Part shown: positions 6,523-64,000 of the stretch, one piece after another
Layout: each line of letters begins with the position of its first letter
Position numbering within the stretch: position 1 is the first letter of the stretch
Source: Syntrophomonadaceae bacterium
Lineage (GTDB): Bacteria; Bacillota; Syntrophomonadia; Syntrophomonadales; DTU052
Direction of reading: 5' to 3'
DNA: 64,000 nt
Assembly (NCBI GenBank): GCA_012729505.1
Contig: JAAYDA010000046.1
Location: 15,384 to 79,383, forward strand
Notes under the pieces: model-generated
Told to the model about the DNA's origin: nothing
Databases searched by the model: none
What the model saw: the letters and a program-made list of their open reading frames with translations, nothing else
Position numbers and translations under genes: made by a program

Positions 6523-9500
6523 ATGGGGAGAGAATTGAAAACCATGGATGGGAATACGGCAGCAGCTCATGTTGCTTACGCCTTTACTGAGGTAGCTGCT
6601 ATTTATCCTATCACACCATCGTCACCTATGGCCGAAAGCATTGATGAATGGTCGGCTAATGGCAGAAAGAATATTTTTGGACAGCAAGTAAATGTAGCGG
6701 AATTGCAGTCAGAAGCTGGAGCGGCCGGTACTCTCCACGGTTCCCTGGCGGCTGGAGCCCTGACCACTACCTTCACCGCTTCACAAGGCTTGCTTTTGAT
6801 GATACCAAATATGTATAAAATATCAGGTGAGCTGTTGCCTGGTGTTATGCATGTTACTGCCCGGGCTTTGGCTACTCATGCATTGTCTATTTTCGGTGAT
6901 CAATCCGATGTAATGGCCTGTCGTCAGACCGGATTTGCTCTGTTGGCTTCAGGCAGTGTACAGGAGGTTATGGATCTGGCCGGAGTTGCACACCTGAGTG
7001 CTATAAAAGGCAGAGTACCTTTCATGCACTTCTTCGATGGTTTCAGGACTTCTCACGAGCTTCAGAAAATTGAAGTTCTGGATTACGATGAATTAGCTAA
7101 GCTCGTGGATTTTGATGCTATTCGCAGGTTCAGGAAGAATGCATTGAACCCTGAGCATCCTGTTACCAGGGGAACCAACCAGAATCCGGACATATTCTTC
7201 CAGGCTCGCGAAGCTGCTAATGTGTATTATGATGCTATTCCCGGTATTGTTGAAGGGTATATGAATGAAATATCGAAGCTGACCGGGAGGAAATATGGAT
7301 TATTTAATTATTATGGTGCGGAAGATGCCGACAGAGTAATAATCGCTATGGGATCAGCCTGTGAAAGTGCCGAAGAGGTAGTTGATTACCTGAATAACCG
7401 GGGAGAAAAAGTCGGAGTGGTTAAAGTCCGCTTGTATCGCCCTTTCTCAGTGAAACATTTTCTGGCGGCCCTGCCGTCTACGGTGAAGAAAATAGCTGTT
7501 CTGGATCGCAGCAAAGACTTGGGTGGGCTGGGAGAACCCCTTTACCAGGATGTTCGCACCGCTTTCTTTGAAAATGGAACCAGACCGGTTATTGTTGGAG
7601 GCCGTTATGGATTAGGTTCTAAAGATACCACCCCGGCCCAGTTAATGGCGGTGTTCGACAACCTGAAACTGGAGGTTCCGAAAAACAATTTTACTATCGG
7701 CATAGTAGACGATGTGACCCATCTGTCATTGCCGGTTGAGAAAGAGATTGATACTGCACCGGAAGGAACCATCAGCTGTAAATTCTGGGGATTAGGTTCA
7801 GATGGGACTGTAGGCGCCAATAAGAACTCCATCAAGATAATAGGAGATAATACTGATCAATACGCTCAGGCCTATTTTGCTTATGATTCCAAGAAATCAG
7901 GGGGGGTCACCGTATCCCACTTAAGATTTGGGAAAAAGCCTATCCGCTCCACATATCTGATAAATAAAGCAGACTTTGTCGCCTGTCACCATTCATCGTA
8001 CCTTACCAAGTACGATATGGTATCTGATTTAAAGGACAATGGCATATTCTTAATAAACTGCGGCTATTCGGCAGAGGAGCTGAGCGAAGTATTGCCCGCA
8101 GACATGAAAAGAATCATCGCCCGGCGCAACATAGATGTTTACACTATTGATGCCGTCAGCATCGGTGCTGAGATTGGGCTGGGCAGCCGGGTAAATATGA
8201 TTATGCAGGCCGCATTTTTCAAGCTGGCCAATATTATTCCTCTGGAAGATGCGGTACAGCATATGAAGGATGCCGTCTATGACACTTACGGCAAAAAAGG
8301 TGAGAATATTATCAACATGAACCTTTTGGCCATAGAAAAAGGTATTGACGCACTCCATAAGGTGGAAGTCCCTGCAAGCTGGGCGGATGCTGCTGACACT
8401 CCTAAAGAAGAAGCAAAGGCGCCGGACTTTATCATTAACGTTATGGAGCCGATTAATCGCCAGGAAGGTGATAAACTGCCGGTCAGCACCTTCATAGGCC
8501 GGGAAGACGGTACATTCCCAGTAGGGACTGCATCCTACGAAAAGAGGGGTATTGCCATTGATGTGCCGGTGTGGATAATGGACAATTGCATTCAGTGTAA
8601 TCAATGTTCTTACGTCTGTCCTCATGCGGCCATAAGACCTTTCCTTTTGAATGAAGAAGAGATTAAAAACGCGCCGACCGGTTTTGTGAGCAAAAAAGCT
8701 ATTGGCAAGGATTTAGCCGGATTCAATTACCGGATCCAATTAACGCCTTTGGATTGTACCGGATGTGCCAGCTGTTTGGAGGTATGTCCCAGCAAGGAAA
8801 AATCCTTGATGATGATGCCCCTGCAGAGTCAAATGGGTGAGATTGAAAATTGGGAATACGCTATTAAGCTGGAACCGAAAGACAATGTAACCAATAAAAA
8901 TACGGTTAAAGGAAGTCAGTTCCAGGTGCCGCTGTTTGAGTTTTCCGGCGCCTGTGCAGGGTGTGGTGAAACTCCATATCTGAAGCTGGTAACCCAATTA
9001 TATGGTGACAGGATGATGGCTGCCAACGCTACCGGCTGTACATCCATTTACAGTGCCAGTGCCCCCTCTATGCCTTATACCACCAACAATAAGGGGCATG
9101 GTCCGGCTTGGTCCAACTCACTGTTTGAAGACAGCGCCGAGTTCGGTTTTGGTATGTACCTGGGGGTAAAACAAATTCGGAATAAACTGGCTGATTTATG
9201 CCGGGAGCTTTTGCAGGCGGACGTGCCGGCTGATCTTAAAGAAGCACTGGACACCTGGCTGGAAAAAATGTTGGATGGCGAAGGATCCAAAGCCGCCAGC
9301 GCCAAGCTGGCAGCCGCCTTAGAAGGATATAAGGCGGCCGACGAAAAGCTGGACTCAATAGTCAAGCAGATTCTGGATAAAGAAGAGTTCCTGATTAAAA
9401 AGTCTCAGTGGATATACGGTGGTGATGGTTGGGGCTATGATATTGGCTTTGGCGGGTTAGATCATGTATTGGCTTCCCATGAGGATGTAAACATCTTATT

Positions 9501-17318: not shown

Positions 17319-17452
17319 GCTTTGGGAAGAAGCCCTCAAAATATTACCGGGAGTCCGGGAGCAAGTGGAATTAACCCCGTGTTCGGGAAGCCAAATCTTG
17401 CCTCCCGCCGGTCCTGTTTTTCTGATCATTGACAATGATATGAAAAGAGGCC

Positions 17453-17481: not shown

Positions 17482-17507
17482 ATGTTGTAGACTATAAGAA
17501 AATTTTA

Positions 17508-17639
17508 TCCGATGACTAATCTGCCCTAAGACCTCCGCCTCTATTGGCGGCGGGCGCCTAAGGGCAGTTAAGTCCCTGGATCCGTGCGACTAAGATTCAG
17601 ATGGAGACAAATCTCCACCTGAATCAAGTCTTACTTTAT
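17508..17639 (+). ncRNA. Conserved ~131-nt two-hairpin element, copy 2 (candidate glmU leader / attenuator)
   Basis: Lies between the promoter and the glmU TTG (27 nt downstream). Hairpin I: ATCC..GACT..CTGCCCT..CCGCC-loop-GGCGG..AGGGCAG..AGTC..GGAT. Hairpin II: GACTAAGATTCAGATGGAG / CTCCACCTGAATCAAGTC, then TTACTTTATT. Confidence 0.65.
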
Positions 17640-30173: not shown

Positions 30174-31733
30174 TTGAAAAAGAAAAGCTTTCTTCAAGGT
30201 GCCTTTATACTGGGTATGGCGGGTATCATCAGCAAGCTTTTGGGAGCCTTGTATCGAATACCCCTGGCTCGTCTCCTGGGAGGAGAGGGGATGGGGCTGT
30301 ATCAGATGGCTTATCCCATCTATACTACGATTCTGGCCATGGCCACAGCCGGTGTGCCGGTAGCAATTTCGATTCTGGTGGCCCGTAAAGAATCGGCAGG
30401 TTTAAGCGGAGACAGCCGCAAAATTTTTCGGGCCTCCTTGGGATTGCTGCTGGTGGTGGGGATCGCTTTATCGGTGGCGGTCTTTGCCGGGGCGGAGTTT
30501 TTGGCCCGTGAAGTCTTGCATCAGCCCAAAGCATTCTTGCCCTTGGCCGCTATTGCTCCAGCCATATTTTTTGCGGGGATGATGTCGGTTTTCCGCGGGT
30601 ATTTTCAGGGCTTCCAGTTAATGATGCCTACTGCGGTATCCCAGGTTATCGAGCAAGTATTTCGGGTTACCTTTGTACTTGTTCTGGCCTTTTGGCTCTA
30701 TCCCCGCGGTTTGGAAATGGCTGCCGCCGGCGCCACATTTGGAGCGGTAATCGGTGGAGCAGCCGGACTTTTGGTTTTACTCATTTTTTACCTGCGTTTC
30801 AGCCGCCAGCCTGTTCCCGGAGGGGCCCTTAAATATTCAGGGGAAACTTCTCTGGAACTGGGCAAAGAGCTGATTCGACTGGCCGTACCGGTTTCTTTGG
30901 GAGCTATGGTTGTGCCCTTGGTCCAGATGCTGGATGCGGTAATCGTTCCGGCTCGATTAATTTCGGCTGGCTTTACTGTATCCAGAGCCACCGAGCTATA
31001 TGGTCAGCTATCAGGCATGGCCTCGGTTCTTATCAACCTGCCTACGATTTTTACTATTGCAATTGCCACCAGCTTGGTTCCGGCCGTAGCTGAAGCTATG
31101 GCCACCCAGGATAAACCCGCCCTTTTTGAAAGGATTAATAACGGCCTGCGGGTCGCTATGCTGATGGCCTTACCTTCAGCAGTGGGCCTTTCGGTTTTGG
31201 CGTATCCAATTACCGACCTGCTTTTTGCATCTCCGGAAGCAGGCATACCTTTGGCTTATCTGGCCTTTTCGGTGGTAGTCATGGCTGTATTTCAGATTAC
31301 CAGCGCATCACTGCAAGGTCTGGGACATCCGGAGATTCCCCTTCGTAACCTGCTGGTAGTCGGTGCAATAAAGGTGGTTCTGAACTTTTATTTGACCGGG
31401 CTGGTATTTTTGAATATTAAAGGACCTGCTATCGGCACCACCGTGGCCTTTTTTGTGGGTTCAGCCCTCAACATGATACAATTATCCCATCGAACGGGGA
31501 TCAAATATGAGTGGGGAAGATATCTCAAGCTGGCCTTGGTGAGTGTGGCCATGGGATTAGCAGTCAAATCAGGTTATCAGGTCATGTTATCCTGGGGATT
31601 GATTTCTCATCTCAGCACACTGGCATCAATCCTGCTGGGAGTAGGAATATATGGGATATTATTACTGGTTGCGGGAGAGTTTAACATGGCTTTGATTAAG
31701 AGGTATATCACAATGGGCAGGGGGGCGAAGTAA
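30174..31733 (+). CDS. MOP-superfamily polysaccharide/lipid II flippase (YabM/SpoVB/MurJ-like)
   Basis: 519 aa with about 14 TM helices. N-terminus KKSFLQGAFILGMAGIISKLLGALYRIPL is typical of this family. Position after spoVT matches Bacillus yabM. Confidence 0.85.
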   Translation: MKKKSFLQGAFILGMAGIISKLLGALYRIPLARLLGGEGMGLYQMAYPIYTTILAMATAGVPVAISILVARKESAGLSGDSRKIFRASLGLLLVVGIALSVAVFAGAEFLAREVLHQPKAFLPLAAIAPAIFFAGMMSVFRGYFQGFQLMMPTAVSQVIEQVFRVTFVLVLAFWLYPRGLEMAAAGATFGAVIGGAAGLLVLLIFYLRFSRQPVPGGALKYSGETSLELGKELIRLAVPVSLGAMVVPLVQMLDAVIVPARLISAGFTVSRATELYGQLSGMASVLINLPTIFTIAIATSLVPAVAEAMATQDKPALFERINNGLRVAMLMALPSAVGLSVLAYPITDLLFASPEAGIPLAYLAFSVVVMAVFQITSASLQGLGHPEIPLRNLLVVGAIKVVLNFYLTGLVFLNIKGPAIGTTVAFFVGSALNMIQLSHRTGIKYEWGRYLKLALVSVAMGLAVKSGYQVMLSWGLISHLSTLASILLGVGIYGILLLVAGEFNMALIKRYITMGRGAK

Positions 31734-32500
31734 TGGAAGATCAAGGAATCAAAGCACTGATGGAGACCATGAACAAATTGTTGTCACCGGAGGGCTGTCC
31801 CTGGGACCGGGAACAGACTCATACTTCATTGCGAAGATATCTGGTGGAGGAAACCTACGAAGTGCTGGCCGCCATTGATGATGGCGACATGAATGAGCTG
31901 CGTGAAGAATTGGGAGACCTCCTGCTTCAGATAGTGTTTCATTCCGCTTTGGCAGAAAGAGAGGGTGCTTTTAATCTGAGTGATGTTGCTAATATAGTTA
32001 ACGAAAAGATGATAAATCGTCATCCTCATGTTTTCGGGCATTTAGAGATTAATTCCAGTGATGAAGTCATGCAGCACTGGGAAGGATTTAAGCGGGATGA
32101 AGGCAAGAAATCAATACTGGAAGGCATTCCCCGGCATCTTCCTGCTCTTCTGAGGGCGTACAAGCTACAGGAAAAGGCGGCCCGGGTTGGTTTTGACTGG
32201 CCCCAGGTTCAGGGGGCCCTGAAAAAACTCAACGAAGAAACTGCCGAGTTTATAGCTGCGTCCCAGGACGGCAGCCCGGAGATGATCGAAGAAGAAATGG
32301 GAGATATTCTCTTCACCATAGTCAACATAGCCCGGATGTCGGGAATTGAGCCGGAACAGGCTTTACAGAACTCCAATGCCAAATTCACCCGCAGATTTAA
32401 TCATATTGAAAGCCGCCTGAACGACGAAGGCCAGCTTCTGGAGGAAGCCGGTCTGGAAAAGCTGGACAAACTCTGGGATGAAGCAAAAGCTAATGAGTGA
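31733..32500 (+). CDS. mazG: MazG nucleoside triphosphate pyrophosphohydrolase
   Basis: 255 aa with tandem MazG EExxE motifs (LVEETYEV, EELGDLLLQ, EEMGDILF). Confidence 0.9.
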   Translation: MEDQGIKALMETMNKLLSPEGCPWDREQTHTSLRRYLVEETYEVLAAIDDGDMNELREELGDLLLQIVFHSALAEREGAFNLSDVANIVNEKMINRHPHVFGHLEINSSDEVMQHWEGFKRDEGKKSILEGIPRHLPALLRAYKLQEKAARVGFDWPQVQGALKKLNEETAEFIAASQDGSPEMIEEEMGDILFTIVNIARMSGIEPEQALQNSNAKFTRRFNHIESRLNDEGQLLEEAGLEKLDKLWDEAKANE

Positions 32501-32670
32501 GGCGGGAGACGGGAGGGGTAAGGAGTGAGGCGAGAGGAGAAACGGGAGACGAGAGGCGAGAGGCAGGCGGGAGCCAAATCTTCCTAAAAGATTTGTGCTT
32601 CCCGCTTGGTTCGACGTGGAGCGTCGAACTTCCTATGGTGAAACAGGGGGACGAGAAATCCGGCTCCTGC
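32496..32670 (+). repeat. Purine-rich GAGGCGGGAG-type dispersed element (R1) with internal hairpins
   Basis: An approximately 80-nt G/A tract starts on the mazG stop codon (GTGAGGCGGGAGACGGGAGGGGTAAGGAGTGAGG...). It is followed by the hairpins GGCGGGAGCCAAATCTT/AAGATTTGTGCTTCCCGC and GTTCGACG/CGTCGAAC. The core is shared with 53414 and 62871. Confidence 0.6.
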
Positions 32671-50698: not shown

Positions 50699-50778
50699 GG
50701 GGACGGGAGGCACAAACGTTCAAGATTTGGCTCCCGCCTGGCTGCGTCGGAATTCATCCCGTGCCTCCTCCTCGTCCC
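50699..50778. repeat. Purine-rich / pyrimidine-rich inverted-repeat element (R2)
   Basis: GGGGACGGGAGGCAC at 50699-50713 pairs with GTGCCTCCTCCTCGTCCC at 50761-50778. The inner AAGATTTGGCTCCCGCC is shared with R1. Confidence 0.55.
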
Positions 50779-51436: not shown

Positions 51437-52624
51437 ATGGACGGGATTAGAGTAGTAAGGATTAATGATACTCACGAGGCGGAAGAACTCCTGAGAGAAA
51501 TAGGTGCTGACGAAATGGGAATCAAGATAATGATTCCCAAATCTGTATTTCGTGCTGTCAAGATTAACGGTATCAGGCCCCATGTTGCCAACATAATCAA
51601 GCAGGAAATGTTGTCCAAAGGCGGAGAAGCAGCAGTTAACCGTCAGACAATACTGGGAGGGGAGAATACTGATATTCTTGTGATGGGAACCCTCAAGCAA
51701 TTCGAGCAGCTGTTAATCAAGCTAAGAATTCAGCCTTTTGGATTGAAAAAGCTGGCTGCTCGTATTGAACAGGCTTTGCAGGCTTCTAATTCTAACCGGC
51801 GCTTCAGCCTGAAGCTGCCCAGGGGGAGGACTATCGAGCTGGGAATGAGCACCTTGATAATGGGGGTGCTGAACGTAACTCCCGATTCGTTTTTTGACGG
51901 CGGACTTTATTTGCAACCGGACCAGGCTTGCCTGAGGGCGGAGGAGATGGTGGCACAGGGGGCCGATGTAATCGACCTGGGCGGAGTATCCACCCGGCCG
52001 GGAGCTACACCCGTTTCTTTTGAAGAAGAGGCAAAACGGGTAATTCCTGCTTTGCGGGAGATTAGACAGAAGCTGCCGGACGTCCCTGTTTCGATTGATA
52101 CTTTTAACGCTCAGACGGCTCGGATGGCTCTCCGGGAAGGTGCGGATTTCATCAATGATCCCAGCGGCCTGAAAGCTGATGCGGAAATGATAGAAGTTGC
52201 GGCTGGCTTCGGATGTCCGGTAATAGTTCAGCATAACCGTATGGGTGGCGGTTATCAGGATCTTATGACTGAGATCTTGGGTGATCTGGAAGAAGCCCTG
52301 ACTATGGCCCATGAGGGTGGTATTCAGGACGGGCAGATTATTATAGATCCGGGAATTGGCTTTGGCAAGACTGCGGAACAGAACTTTACTCTCATAAAGA
52401 ATCTGGCGGAATTCAAGGTCCTGGATAAGCCGATTTTGCTGGGAGTATCCAACAAAGCCTTTATTGGCCGGGCCATGGGTGATATGGATGCAGAGCGCGT
52501 AACCGGTTCACTGGCGGCGGCAGTTGTAGGGGTAATGAACGGGGCAGATATGGTCAGGATGCACAACATCGAGGAAACCCGCCGCGCCTTGGCCGTGATT
52601 GATAAAATCAGGAGAGCTTGGTGA
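51437..52624 (+). CDS. folP: Dihydropteroate synthase with an approximately 135-aa N-terminal extension
   Basis: The DHPS core starts at LIMGVLNVTPDSFFDGG. The start is uncertain (ATG 51437 or TTG 51401). Confidence 0.9.
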   Translation: MDGIRVVRINDTHEAEELLREIGADEMGIKIMIPKSVFRAVKINGIRPHVANIIKQEMLSKGGEAAVNRQTILGGENTDILVMGTLKQFEQLLIKLRIQPFGLKKLAARIEQALQASNSNRRFSLKLPRGRTIELGMSTLIMGVLNVTPDSFFDGGLYLQPDQACLRAEEMVAQGADVIDLGGVSTRPGATPVSFEEEAKRVIPALREIRQKLPDVPVSIDTFNAQTARMALREGADFINDPSGLKADAEMIEVAAGFGCPVIVQHNRMGGGYQDLMTEILGDLEEALTMAHEGGIQDGQIIIDPGIGFGKTAEQNFTLIKNLAEFKVLDKPILLGVSNKAFIGRAMGDMDAERVTGSLAAAVVGVMNGADMVRMHNIEETRRALAVIDKIRRAW

Positions 52625-53445
52625 TGGACCAAATAATTTTGGACGGATTGAAATTCTGGGGATGCCATGGAATAACCCCGGAAGAGAAGAATAAGCCCCA
52701 GCCTTTTGAAGTCCACCTGGTTCTGTATCGGGATTTGAGCCGGGCCGGGCAGACTGATTCCATAGATGATACCGTTGATTATTCTCAGGTTTTTGCCGAT
52801 ATCCGCCATATTGTTGAAAAAGAGAGTTTCAACCTGTTGGAAAAAATGGCGGACAGAATCGCTGCTCATGTTTTGGGCTTGAATAAAGTAATTACGGCCC
52901 GGGTAACCGTGAAGAAGCTTAAGCCTCCTATTGGGGGGGAATATCGATCTTTCGGGGTGTCCATTGAAAGAAAAAGAGTTGCCGGTACTGCCTACTTAGG
53001 GTTGGGAACTAATTTGGGCGACCGGGAAAAAAATCTGACTGAAGCAGCAGGATACCTGGAAAAACTCACCTCTACCCGAGTATTAAAATATTCCTCCCGG
53101 TATTATACTTCTCCTTGGGGAAAAACCGACCAACCCGAATTTCTTAACCAAGCGGCAGCAGTCGAAACCTACTTAACCCCTCGGGAGTTACTTCAAGAAA
53201 TGCTGGACATTGAGACCCTGATGGGACGGAAGCGCCTGGAGAAATGGGAGCCTCGGATTATCGATCTCGATCTGCTCCTTTATGGCCGCCAAACAATTCA
53301 GGAACCTGATCTCACCATTCCTCATCCCTATCTGACTCAGCGGGAATTTGTCATAAGACCCCTTCTCGAAATCGAGCCTGATCTTCAATTACCAGACGGA
53401 CGGTTGTTAAAAAGTGAGGCGGGAGGAGTAAGGAGTGAGCGGTAA
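52624..53445 (+). CDS. folB-folK: Bifunctional dihydroneopterin aldolase / HPPK (FolB-FolK fusion)
   Basis: The N-terminal approximately 118 aa are FolB-like (LKFWGCHG...). The C-terminal part is FolK-like (AYLGLGTNLGD ... RIIDLDLL ... IPHP). ATG 52624 overlaps the folP stop (TGATG). Confidence 0.9.
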   Translation: MDQIILDGLKFWGCHGITPEEKNKPQPFEVHLVLYRDLSRAGQTDSIDDTVDYSQVFADIRHIVEKESFNLLEKMADRIAAHVLGLNKVITARVTVKKLKPPIGGEYRSFGVSIERKRVAGTAYLGLGTNLGDREKNLTEAAGYLEKLTSTRVLKYSSRYYTSPWGKTDQPEFLNQAAAVETYLTPRELLQEMLDIETLMGRKRLEKWEPRIIDLDLLLYGRQTIQEPDLTIPHPYLTQREFVIRPLLEIEPDLQLPDGRLLKSEAGGVRSER

Positions 53446-53580
53446 GGCGATAGGAGTGAGGGGTGAGGAGGGAGGAGCAAGTGGAATAACCCCGTGCCTC
53501 CGGCATCAATGCTGGCTTTTTTAATCTGCGTCCAACGTTCCCTCGTTCCCCTCACACTTTACGCCTCTCGCCTTACGCTC
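53414..53580. repeat. Purine-rich element (R3) forming a long imperfect inverted repeat around a terminator-like hairpin
   Basis: The left arm GAGCGGTAAGGCGATAGGAGTGAGGGGTGAGG (from 53437) pairs with the right arm CCTCGTTCCCCTCACACTTTACGCCTCTCGCCTTACGCTC (53541-53580). The centre holds CCGGCAT-ca-ATGCTGG followed by CTTTTTT. The element's 5' end encodes the last codons and the stop of folK. Confidence 0.6.
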
Positions 53581-53793
53581 CATCGCTTTGAAACAATATT
53601 TTGACAAATCTTAATGATTTGTTGTGTTATGGTGATTTCCGTGCTAAAATATACGCGAAAGTATGGTGCGGAAAAACTAGATACTAGATTTTCTCCCGCC
53701 GAACTCCTTATTATCCGCTTGTACCATTGGGGGCCAAGACGGAAATCCTGAGTAGCGGCTGGCGGTAGTCGTTGCTCTCAAGGGGGGCTTCTC

Positions 53794-60349: not shown

Positions 60350-60361
60350 AGAGTCTTTTTA

Positions 60362-60492
60362 TCCGATGACTAATCTGCCCTAAGACCCCCGCCTCATAGG
60401 CGGCGGGTGCCCAAGGGCAGTTAAGTCCCTGGATCCGTGCGACTAAGATTCAGATGGATTCAAAACTCCACCTGAATCAAGTCTTACTTTAT
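60362..60492 (+). ncRNA. Conserved ~131-nt two-hairpin element, copy 3 (upstream of bioY)
   Basis: Starts 13 nt after the nadC stop and ends 17-26 nt before the bioY start. Near-identical to copies 1 and 2. Confidence 0.6.
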
Positions 60493-61913: not shown

Positions 61914-62888
61914 ATGGTTTTCAAAATTGGTGATCTGGTTTTAAAAAATCGGGTTGTGGCCGCACCTATGGCGGGTATAACCGATAAAGCCTTTCGGACA
62001 ATAGCCGCGTCCTTTGGATGCGGCTTAACCTTTACGGAGATGATTAGTGCCCAGGCCCTTTTGTATCGCCATCCCAGAACCTTAGCAATGTTTGACATCT
62101 CCCGGGATATGGTGCCGGCCGTTGTGCAGCTTTTTGGCAGCCGGCCGGAGACTGTGGGGGCGGCGGCGGCCATGGCCCAGGAATACGGGGCCATGATTAT
62201 CGATATCAATATGGGCTGTCCTACCCCGAAGATTGTGAAAAGCGGGGAAGGATCGGCCTTGATGAAGGATCTTCCCCGGGCCCGGCAGTTGATCCGCTCT
62301 GTGGTAGGGGCGGTTGATATTCCGGTTACCGTCAAGATGCGCAAGGGATGGGACGAGTCCAGTATCAACTTTACGGAGCTGTGCCGTATTGCGGAGGATG
62401 AAGGAGCTGCTGCGGTTACTGTACATCCCCGCACCAGGTGTCAGTTTTTTTCAGGCCAGGCGGATTGGGATGGAATCCGCCTGGCCAAGGAAGCTGTCAG
62501 TATTCCGGTTATAGGCAATGGTGATATCTTTTCACCTGAGGATGCAGTACGAATGATTGAGCAAACCGGCTGTGATGCGGTAATGATAGGCCGGGGCGCC
62601 ATGGGCAACCCCTTTATCTTTTCTGCCACCGCCGCTCTTCTCAATAACGAGCCCCTTCCGCTTTCGCCGTCACCTGCAGAGAGGGTGCAGGTGGCTCTGC
62701 GGCATTTTGACCTTATGGAGGAATCCAAGGGACTTCACAGGACTATTTCCGAAATGCGCAAACACATGGGCTGGTATGTCCGGGGCCTTCCCGGAGCAGC
62801 CAATGCCCGCAATCTCATAAACCAATCCACCAGCCGCCAGGAATTCGAGACTATTCTTCAGGCGATAGCCGAGAGGCGGGAGGAGTGA
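61914..62888 (+). CDS. dusB: tRNA-dihydrouridine synthase
   Basis: 324 aa with APMAGITD, DINMGCP and HPRT motifs. Confidence 0.95.
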   Translation: MVFKIGDLVLKNRVVAAPMAGITDKAFRTIAASFGCGLTFTEMISAQALLYRHPRTLAMFDISRDMVPAVVQLFGSRPETVGAAAAMAQEYGAMIIDINMGCPTPKIVKSGEGSALMKDLPRARQLIRSVVGAVDIPVTVKMRKGWDESSINFTELCRIAEDEGAAAVTVHPRTRCQFFSGQADWDGIRLAKEAVSIPVIGNGDIFSPEDAVRMIEQTGCDAVMIGRGAMGNPFIFSATAALLNNEPLPLSPSPAERVQVALRHFDLMEESKGLHRTISEMRKHMGWYVRGLPGAANARNLINQSTSRQEFETILQAIAERREE

Positions 62889-62920
62889 GGCAGACGTGAG
62901 CCGATTCCGCTTGCTCCCGG
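62871..62920 (+). repeat. Purine-rich GAGGCGGGAGGAGTGAGG element (R4) overlapping the dus stop
   Basis: GAGAGGCGGGAGGAGTGAGGCAGACGTGAG, followed by the partial complement GCTTGCTCCCGG. The core is identical to R3. Confidence 0.5.
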
Positions 62921-62938: not shown

Positions 62939-62960
62939 TGTGTACAAGGTTGTGTACAAG
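62939..62960 (+). promoter_or_regulatory. Tandem direct repeat TGTGTACAAG-gt-TGTGTACAAG (each containing the TGTACA palindrome): candidate operator
   Basis: Units at 62939-62948 and 62951-62960, immediately upstream of SD GAGGTGG and ATG 62970. Confidence 0.5.
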
Positions 62961-62969
62961 AGGTGGAAT

Positions 62970-63536
62970 ATGGAATTTTTTCGGATTCAGGAGAAGATGA
63001 TCAGTAAACAGAAGCTGATAGAAGCGGTGTCTCAGATTCTTGAAATGCGTACCCGAGGCTTTTCTCAGCAGGAGGTGGCTGATCAATTAGGAGTAGATCG
63101 TTCTTTTGTTTCCCGTTTGGAGTCTTTGGGTGAGCTGCGCAAAGGAAAAACCATAGCATTAGTGGGTTTTCCTATTCTTAACAAGGATGAAATCATGGAG
63201 ATAGCCAATCGGGAAGGGGTAGACTATGTGCTGCTCTGGAGCGAGGAAGAGCGTAATCGCTTTGTCTCCGAGCGCACCGGGGCCCAGCTTATGAATGAGA
63301 TGATGGATATGATTCCCCGGGTGAGGGAGCTGGATGTGGTAATATTGCTGGCTTCCGATTTCCGTTTGAAGCTTCTGCGGGGATTGCTGGATAATGAGAT
63401 TTTAACTGTGGAGATAGGAGAGTCGCCCTTAACTGAAGATAAATGGGTGGATCCCCAGGAGCTTTTGAAGGTGCTGCGAGCAGTCAAGGGGGCCCGGAAA
63501 AAGGAGAAGCCGAAAGATAGGAGGAGTCGGGAGTGA
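62970..63536 (+). CDS. HTH-domain transcriptional regulator-like protein
   Basis: 188 aa from ATG 62970. Contains an HTH (GFSQQEVADQLGVDRSFVSRLE) and a basic C-terminal tail. Confidence 0.7.
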   Translation: MEFFRIQEKMISKQKLIEAVSQILEMRTRGFSQQEVADQLGVDRSFVSRLESLGELRKGKTIALVGFPILNKDEIMEIANREGVDYVLLWSEEERNRFVSERTGAQLMNEMMDMIPRVRELDVVILLASDFRLKLLRGLLDNEILTVEIGESPLTEDKWVDPQELLKVLRAVKGARKKEKPKDRRSRE

Positions 63537-64000
63537 AGCACGTGGTCAGCGTCAGTCTGGGGTCGTCAAAGCGGAATCACGCGATTGAAACGGAGTTTTT
63601 GGGAGAACAGTTTAAGATTGAACGAATAGGAACTGATGGGGACTGGGATAAAGCTCTGAGCCTGGTGAGGGAATTGGATGGGAAGGTGGATGCCTTTGGG
63701 ATGGGAGGCATAAGCCTTTATGTTTATGCAGGCACTCGCAAGTATGTGCTGAAAGATGCCAAACAGCTTCTGGCTGAAGCCAAAAGGACGCCTATGGTTG
63801 ATGGGGGAGGGCTTAAGAACACCCTGGAAAGAGACTCGATTATGAGGGTGGCCCGTGAAGGAATCGTGGATTTCAAAAACAAGCGGGTCCTGATGGTCTG
63901 TGGAGTTGACCGTCTGGGCATGGCCCAGGTTCTGGATAAGCTCAGCGATAACATCGTTTTTGGCGATTTGATCTATAGTCTGGGAATACCTATCCGAATC
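63533..64000 (+). CDS. Conserved clostridial protein (family often annotated quinate 5-dehydrogenase-like), 3'-partial at the window edge
   Basis: Not in the ORF track because it is open at the window end. GTG 63533 overlaps the upstream stop (GTGA), with GGAGGAG 7 nt upstream. My translation is VKHVVSVSLGSSKRNHAIETEFLGEQFKIERIGTDGDWDKALSLVRELDGKVDAFGMGG... Confidence 0.6.
   Translation, partial: MKHVVSVSLGSSKRNHAIETEFLGEQFKIERIGTDGDWDKALSLVRELDGKVDAFGMGGISLYVYAGTRKYVLKDAKQLLAEAKRTPMVDGGGLKNTLERDSIMRVAREGIVDFKNKRVLMVCGVDRLGMAQVLDKLSDNIVFGDLIYSLGIPIRI

Follow-up and report, generated by a model that had tools for sequence, protein, structure and literature searches.

Tandem heptanucleotides at bacterial gene ends have their closest described parallel in the G-rich heptamers GGGAATC of Xanthomonas and GGGGAYT of Nostoc, which are scattered among numerous intergenic sites (Rehm et al., 2015; PMC4692102). 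In Xanthomonas, these repeats adjoin or overlap stop codons and include 70–75 convergent pairs able to form stem-loops; between related species their length and sequence vary while position is kept, and they are mostly transcribed (PMC4692102). The forward TAACTGA heptamers of marine Beggiatoaceae, cyanobacteria, and Bacteroidetes stop all three reading frames, and sometimes overlap the stop of the upstream open reading frame (ORF) (MacGregor, 2015; PMC4679880). A 2007 genome survey, as these two papers summarize it, found heptanucleotides over-represented among the long simple repeats of bacteria and credited them to polymerase slippage (PMC4692102, PMC4679880). Here we describe an array with a different unit, GTGAGGN, which forms the 3′ end of the folB-folK fusion gene (folBK) in a 64,000-nucleotide stretch (the window, from contig JAAYDA010000046.1) of a Syntrophomonadaceae metagenome-assembled genome. 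Of all long simple repeats in bacteria, those with a period of seven are reported to be the most over-represented.

With a probability of roughly 0.6, the feature at folBK belongs to a dispersed family of degenerate tandem arrays of a heptanucleotide (GTGAGGN) and is a locus at which such an array captured a gene end, with growth of the slippage type and with the encoded protein tail as a by-product. From its sequence, it is best filed with the known, functionally unexplained G-rich heptanucleotide simple repeats of the type described by Rehm et al. (2015), with a unit and a host that are new. Like those repeats, GTGAGGN arrays are G-rich on the coding strand, adjoin or overlap stops (those of FolBK, MazG, Dus, and a helix-turn-helix (HTH) protein in the window, and of genes on a second contig), and occur as a convergent pair with the G-rich strand first, 53414–53483(+)/53539–53580(-). 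Unlike them, they have GG rather than GGG runs and lack the four G3 tracts, so that the array holds no canonical G-quadruplex (G4) motif; they are also far more degenerate, Shine-Dalgarno (SD)-like, stop-bearing, joined to hairpin modules, and found in a Firmicute. As in the repeats of the 2007 survey, the period is seven, the array is longer than chance and intergenic, and slippage is the proposed origin, whereas the survey, as described in the papers that cite it, deals with near-perfect repeats and includes neither the GTGAGGN unit nor the polarity of paired arrays nor gene-end capture. The TAACTGA system uses one heptamer genome-wide, and GTGAGGN arrays likewise close all frames at upstream stops; TAACTGA arrays differ in being AT-rich, not SD-like, mostly just upstream of starts, limited to 2–6 copies, and essentially without inverted pairs (PMC4679880). 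The STRR heptanucleotide repeats of heterocystous cyanobacteria (Calothrix PCC 7601) are also tandem, intergenic, and dispersed, with several families; their units differ from those at folBK, and no link to gene 3′ ends is reported for them in the account given by PMC4692102. A literature search by unit sequence returned nothing relevant.

The basic object at this locus is a tandem repeat of period 7 (Table 1). Tandem Repeats Finder places it at 53413–53477 with 9.3 copies, the consensus AGTGAGG, and 67% matches, and its ten units read GTGAGGC, GGGAGGA, GTAAGGA, GTGAGCG, GTAAGGC, GATAGGA, GTGAGGG, GTGAGGA, GGGAGGA, and GCAAGTG. These are head-to-tail and in register, as in a heptanucleotide simple sequence repeat; the near-perfect unit identity of such repeats is not found (67% matches), and eight distinct sequences among ten units mark the array as decayed or degenerate. 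It also has a weak higher-order period of 21 nt. An earlier sequence-only reading of this stretch had reported degenerate, SD-like units here, which we confirm, without naming the tandem period; its description of the tract as composed of G and A only was too strict, since the tract is 83% purine, although a purine-rich tract does lie where it was located. Most GTGAGGN-type units carry TGA, TAA, or TAG, and since a 7-nt period shifts the frame from unit to unit, no reading frame stays open through the array (1, 4, and 2 stop triplets per frame); the complement strand has none. The unit is also G-rich and SD-like: 23 of the 61 10-mers in the array (38%) bind the anti-SD at ≤ -8 kcal/mol, compared with 2.8% window-wide, for a generic anti-SD sequence that may not be that of the host, whose 16S gene lies outside the window. 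Six other metagenome assemblies match the region with 0 mismatches, so that it is not an assembly artefact.

The folBK array is one of several. Scanning for period 7 yields four arrays in the window, where shuffles lead one to expect 0.08, and all three plus-strand arrays, plus a weak fourth, overlap the stops of genes (MazG, FolBK, Dus, and the HTH protein). At the tRNA-dihydrouridine synthase (Dus) gene, the array begins within native Glu-Arg codons and adds 'REE', giving the tail AIAERREE* compared with SLIER* in an orthologue. The core motif GAGGCGGGAGGAGT and its near variants have six occurrences in the window where 0.47 are expected, in agreement with the earlier proposal that it recurs; the 14-mer is exact at 62873 as claimed, whereas only its first 10 nt match at 32499. 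Contigs of the same lineage carry further members. Locus L149, from the same JGI sample as locus L003, has seven arrays in 8.3 kb, some of which adjoin or run over the 3′ ends of the genes encoding an enoyl-CoA hydratase, Ogt, and an ABC ATPase. Locus L250 has a 259-nt array (about 37 units, 2372–2630) in which a higher-order repeat of about five units was seen by eye. Many same-lineage arrays sit 100–700 nt from gene ends.

The capture of a gene end is seen at folBK itself, where the last 10 codons (SEAGGVRSER) and the TAA stop sit within the purine array, as the sequence-only reading had stated. None of 15 aligned homologues has this tail, and the comparison with folK 3′ ends in relatives thus gives no instance of the same C-terminus shared in the absence of the repeat. 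Of the three frames, that of folBK closes last, at unit 5, which argues against selection for the tail and fits a by-product; the tail looks like a tolerated, probably neutral, by-product on a naturally variable C-terminus. The gene is annotated in loci L001–L006, and the ATG at 52624 is the start of the 273-aa database protein P0001; a longer, 275-aa ORF begins two codons earlier. At its other end, the folP stop TGA (52622–52624) overlaps the folBK start region (TTG 52618, GTG 52621, ATG 52624), which is ordinary translational coupling.

Relatives place the event in time. In the closest one (L008, 83% protein identity), folK ends in ...GRCLKDF*, two codons past a shared Lys, and the locus has neither the purine array nor the 20-nt motif joined to it (module B). 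It keeps the homologous hairpin and a degenerate pyrimidine heptamer tract, read by eye and below the array-scan thresholds, upstream of the same conserved promoter motif. A more distant relative (L010, 62% identity) has no purine array after folK and a clear pyrimidine array elsewhere in the same intergenic region, and in a third (L011, 55–57% identity) the folK locus has neither. Between species, the folK purine array is thus present (window) or absent (L008, L010, L011), and by parsimony it was gained, together with module B, at the folBK stop in the window lineage after the 83%-identity split, displacing the native stop. The alignment of the window with L008 shows no target-site duplication. 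Of the earlier idea that an element inserted into, or was recruited onto, the 3′ end of folK, the gain of an array at a gene end stands; the insertion of one long inverted-repeat element as a unit does not, because L008 and L010 have a pyrimidine tract or array without the purine arm, the arms are unequal, there is no target-site duplication, and the likeness of the arms does not exceed that between other arrays of the family.

Table 1. Features of the heptamer-array family and associated modules in the 64,000-nt window; L-numbers denote other loci.
Feature	Position	Strand	Basis and remarks
folB-folK fusion gene (dihydroneopterin aldolase + HPPK)	52624..53445	+	ORF; P0001 100% identical; Pfam FolB + HPPK
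Array-encoded tail SEAGGVRSER and stop TAA	53413-53442 and 53443-53445	+	TAA inside unit 5, GTAAGGC
Purine-strand heptamer array, ~10 units, consensus GTGAGGN	53414..53483	+	Tandem Repeats Finder and period-7 array scan
Module B (GCAAGTGGAATAACCCCGTG), dispersed 20-nt motif joined to array	53477..53496	+	Also at window 17361-17381; with 1 mismatch at L149 6975-6995 and 7261-7281
Weak intrinsic-terminator-like hairpin (6-bp stem, 4-nt loop) and T6	53500..53522	+	-7.3 kcal/mol; homologous hairpin in L008
Reverse-orientation heptamer array, ~5-6 units, pyrimidine on + strand	53539..53580	-	Repeat search and array scan
Second array of the family, across TGA stop of MazG gene (31733-32500; Pfam)	32495..32571	+	Tandem Repeats Finder, array scan
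Hairpin module C (GGCGGGAGCCAAATCTT...AAGATTTGTGCTTCCCGCT)	32566-32606	+	After MazG array
Hairpin module D (TTCGACG-tggag-CGTCGAA)	32610-32628	+	After MazG array
Third array, across TGA stop of tRNA-dihydrouridine synthase gene (61914-62888)	62864..62898	+	Array scan; Dus by Pfam in L001
Weak/short array over TGA stop of HTH-domain gene (62940-63536)	63508..63539	+	Repeat-family member
Small composite downstream of FTHFS gene	50699..50778	.	Purine 50699-50713, C half 50722-50738, B-like 50744-50763, pyrimidine 50764-50778

The purine array is followed by a small hairpin (53500–53515, CCGGCA-TCAA-TGCTGG) and T6, which by sequence is a putative, weak intrinsic terminator, a description that applies to the hairpin only and not to the arrays. 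Beyond it lies the pyrimidine array, 20–60 nt upstream of the conserved TTGACA (53601–53606) of the next operon. The sequence-only reading had described the two tracts as an inverted repeat with arms of about 40 nt; a reversed tract does occur at 53539–53580, but the arms are unequal (70 nt vs. about 40 nt), and the best ungapped inverted repeat between them is 27 nt at 81%. The folding it had suggested bears out a predicted stem: the minimum free energy RNA fold has 35 imperfect outer pairs (20 GC, 11 AU, 4 GU) between 53414–53473 and 53539–53576, around the weak hairpin and T6, and the paired arrays with the inner hairpin reach about -75 kcal/mol (z = -2.7 vs. dinucleotide shuffles). Plus-strand RNA at this locus folds 12–16 kcal/mol better than minus-strand RNA. 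The complementarity is not specific to the locus, since the reverse complement of the pyrimidine arm aligns about equally well to other arrays of the GTGAGGN family, and a unit-shuffled purine arm equals or beats the observed alignment score in 11% of trials (p = 0.11). The inverted repeat is therefore a consequence of two same-family arrays standing face to face. An inverted duplication between the arms was rejected on the same scores, and there is no sign of compensatory maintenance of arm pairing, the arm complementarity being no higher than in unit-shuffled controls. Covariance models of Rfam 15 gave no match at the gathering score in the window and, at E ≤ 1, nothing relevant in the whole window and none near the folK locus, and scans for tRNA and transfer-messenger RNA were empty.

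Taken as one locus of such a family, the feature can be explained as follows. When the array displaced the native gene end, translation extended 10 codons into it, up to the first in-frame TAA, in unit 5. Arrays probably gain and lose units in place, through slipped-strand mispairing or unequal recombination, because they show 21-nt and longer higher-order periodicities. The two arrays can form an imperfect stem, about 35 bp long, with the weak terminator inside it; this stem would form only in read-through RNA or in single-stranded DNA. By analogy with repetitive extragenic palindromic (REP) sequences, it might at most reinforce the weak terminator, or insulate the 3′ end of folBK from the promoter of the pan operon. 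A side effect on the translation of folBK is also conceivable, because the stem starts 30 nt before the stop, and for REPs that lie no more than 15 nt from a stop, ribosome stalling and reduced translation of the gene upstream have been reported (Liang, 2015, cited in PMC12306157).

Around the arrays, a small set of other modules recurs. Module B (GCAAGTGGAATTAACCCCGTG) is present in both orientations, so that its copies can pair with each other; besides the copies in Table 1, there is a divergent one at 50744–50763 (identified by eye) and another at 7078–7095 of L149, where module B also lies inside a 75-nt segment duplicated 285 nt apart (~6925–7000 and ~7205–7290). Where module B meets the folBK array, a two-codon start-stop mini-ORF (GTG GAA TAA, 53481–53489) begins 3 nt past the strongest SD-like stretch, GGGAGGAG (53470–53477), at the array's end; this is a short spacing, and the mini-ORF is not kept in the module B copy at 17361. 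Module C is a 17-bp hairpin of the form GGCGGGAGCCAAATCTT-loop-AAGATTTG(G/T)GCT(C/T)CCGC, and module D is TTCGACG/TTCAGCG-tggag-complement. Copies of C and D occur in the window (32566–32628, 50722–50738, and 17386–17408), in L149 (2284–2320 and 7340–7380), and in L250 (2664–2756), usually between a purine and a pyrimidine array. With A denoting the array, the order A-(B)-C-D is common to the MazG locus and L250; in L250, the long array leads into B, C, D, another C half, and a short pyrimidine array, which makes it the fullest composite observed. Composites of the same lineage that are bordered 5′ by a purine array and 3′ by a pyrimidine array fold with z = -6.6 (L250) and z = -4.5 (L149) relative to shuffles. 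Partial composites lie in the window at 32495–32660, 50699–50778, and 17340–17410; the fold of the 50699–50778 composite is no better than shuffles. A hammerhead-like reading of a CGAAAC...CAGATGA segment in L149 was rejected by eye, as the core U is replaced.

Judged by these sequences, the arrays and hairpin modules constitute a mosaic repeat system in this lineage that resembles the bacterial interspersed mosaic elements (BIMEs). Pneumococcal BOX elements are likewise dispersed modular palindromes, with a middle module of variable copy number. As with the REPs and BIMEs of enterobacteria, folK-type elements are dispersed, modular, intergenic imperfect palindromes, often right after stops. 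A REP or REPIN, as outlined in PMC3733652, is a fixed imperfect palindrome of 20–40 nt with a conserved GTAG or CGTC end, whereas the stems at folK are tandem heptamers of variable length without such an end tag. The feature is also not that of a transposable element of the miniature inverted-repeat type (MITE), for there is no target-site duplication at folK and L008 keeps the pyrimidine tract without the purine arm. The intrastrand-triplex motif family is set apart by its description in PMC4666352, as far as this goes, being an intrastrand triplex and not a tandem heptamer.

Arrays of this general form extend well beyond the lineage. Pattern scans of species-representative genomes, JGI metagenomes, and IMG/VR viral contigs gave at least 120 matches each (L012–L371, at least about 360 loci), with genes in these foreign loci called as mechanical ORFs. 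The matches listed include G..AGG-type arrays from Nostoc and other cyanobacteria, Planctomycetes, Acidobacteria, Nitrospira, beta- and gammaproteobacteria, Bacteroidales, and viral contigs, and most are near-perfect repeats of GTGAGGN, GTTAGGA, GTAAGGC, GGGAGGC, and similar units. Different heptamer families are often adjacent (e.g., L132, L171, and L241). Because the search patterns fixed G..AGG, only unit positions 2, 3, and 7 are informative; stop-bearing units make up 68% among the genome-scan matches listed, compared with 50% if the allowed units were equally used. Where arrays of opposite orientation lie within 200 nt of each other in the matches listed, the purine array precedes the pyrimidine array 28, 37, and 27 times in the respective collections and follows it 0, 0, and 1 times, a total of 92:1 that slippage alone does not explain. 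Paired arrays lie between co-directional genes, convergent genes, and rarely divergent genes, and convergent gene ends were rejected as the cause of the pairs and of their polarity, since pairs are found in all gene contexts. The 5′ edge of the purine array faces a same-strand stop in 138 of the matches listed and an opposite-strand start in 68, with a median stop-to-array distance of 0, a figure inflated by the fact that an array ends any ORF running into it.

Several observations weigh against reading the folBK feature as a slippage-grown array with an incidental tail. Arrays with 67% matches are unlike typical simple sequence repeats, and pure local slippage leaves unexplained both why one unit family is found at every locus and why three of the window arrays have GAGGCGGGAG in common near their start. 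Copy-number variation between strains is not visible among the six matching contigs, all of which are clones with 0 mismatches. The terminator is placed inside the stem, so that a terminated RNA would lack the 3′ arm. Canonical hairpin-plus-T terminators within 100 nt on either side accompany only 6 of 601 arrays (about 1%) and are not enriched across phyla, and a general association of arrays with terminators was rejected on this count. Since neither the single unit family nor the 92:1 polarity follows from slippage, two further readings keep some weight. According to one, the feature is a modular palindromic element that moves or once moved (MITE, REP/BIME, or BOX-like), with heptamer arrays as its outer inverted repeats, a copy of which landed on the folK stop. 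The strong folding of the same-lineage composites, the recurrence of modules B and C at several window sites, the presence of the array with B in the window and not in L008, and the shared start motif would all suit such an element; yet there is no target-site duplication at the boundary, the same intergenic region in relatives has pyrimidine arrays or tracts and no purine arm, the arms are unequal in length and not specifically similar, and the order and orientation of modules vary. No transposase or RAYT gene was noticed in the 64-kb window, where no systematic search for one was made. We consider this origin unlikely.

An improbable alternative, in our assessment, is a functional gene-exit device acting on RNA: either an all-frame stop combined with a trap of multiple SD sites that catches ribosomes as they terminate, for which the pyrimidine arm would serve as a cis anti-SD mask, or an insulator, prone to purine-RNA or R-loop formation, against polymerases on their way out of genes. 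Such a device would account for a unit built as a stop codon followed by GG or an SD core, for the frequency of strong (generic) anti-SD binding in the array, for the purine-first pairs and the stop-to-array distance among the matches listed across phyla, and for the better fold of the plus-strand RNA at folBK, and reported ribosome stalling by REP hairpins ≤15 nt from a stop offers a precedent (Liang, 2015, in the account of PMC12306157). It is countered by the mechanical inflation of the stop-proximity statistic, by the many same-lineage arrays far from gene ends, and by the closure of the folK frame only at unit 5. Comparison of sense and antisense folding energies gave no consistent direction across loci, so that a sense-strand folding advantage was rejected as a general sign of selection at the RNA level. 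That the locus is instead a non-B DNA element (G-quadruplex, i-motif, or H-DNA) modulating the DUF2520-panBCD promoter or replication, as proposed for the GGGAATC repeats (PMC4692102), appears very unlikely. One strand is G-rich and the other C-rich, the purine array contains 11 overlapping two-tetrad G4 motifs, and the pyrimidine array stands just upstream of the conserved TTGACA; the canonical motif (G3+N1-7)x3 G3+ is nevertheless absent from the purine array, which has only three G3+ runs in 70 nt, T interruptions break the mirror symmetry required for H-DNA, and the pyrimidine array of L010 is not spaced from the promoter as it is in the window. Unit degeneracy, and nothing else, would favor ordinary sequence that is repetitive by chance or an assembly artefact, a possibility we regard as negligible given the excess of arrays and of the core motif over expectation, the identity of six independent assemblies, and a tail that is not conserved.

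The window holds two other elements of note. A repeat of about 130 nt occurs in three plus-strand copies, 78–92% identical: at 2392–2524, with a minus-strand ORF that ends at 2327 on one side and a plus-strand ORF that starts at 2661 on the other; at 17507–17639, just upstream of a gene that we take to be glmU (start 17667); and at 60360–60492, directly before bioY (start 60517). The predicted consensus fold is a pair of long hairpins (-60 kcal/mol), Rfam has no match, and the repeat may be a small RNA, a MITE, or a mobile cassette carrying a promoter or terminator. Downstream of folBK, a leader at 53640–53793 (L008 1060–1200, L010 11235–11380, L011 3700–3850) precedes the DUF2520-panBCD operon. 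The promoter motifs before it are conserved (TTGACA at 53601 and TGcTAAAAT at 53642), and the leader is nearly invariant across relatives in which FolK is only 55–83% identical, with conserved helices and a stem that covers the ribosome-binding site and the TTG start. There is no Rfam match to it even at E ≤ 1, and it is a candidate unclassified cis-regulatory RNA for the pantothenate genes.

The folK locus provides a clean, dated example in a Firmicute of an array that overwrites the C-terminus of a conserved enzyme and donates its stop codon, and the last residues of genes annotated in such genomes may accordingly be repeat-derived. It seems quite unlikely, though we put it forward, that heptamers combining a stop codon with an SD core (GTGAGGN, GTAAGGN, GTTAGGA, and similar) form a single class across phyla and viruses, in which the purine-first polarity reflects a directional function or a directional origin and not a side effect of slippage. 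If this were true, a directional function would consist of three-frame closure with capture of 30S subunits, or of a block by purine-rich RNA or R-loops, and a directional origin would be one in which repeats are added to 3′ ends at DNA breaks and the ends are then joined head to head, as happens when telomeres fuse. The purine-first polarity and the recurrence of stop-plus-SD units in many phyla and viral contigs offer testable handles on the mechanism.

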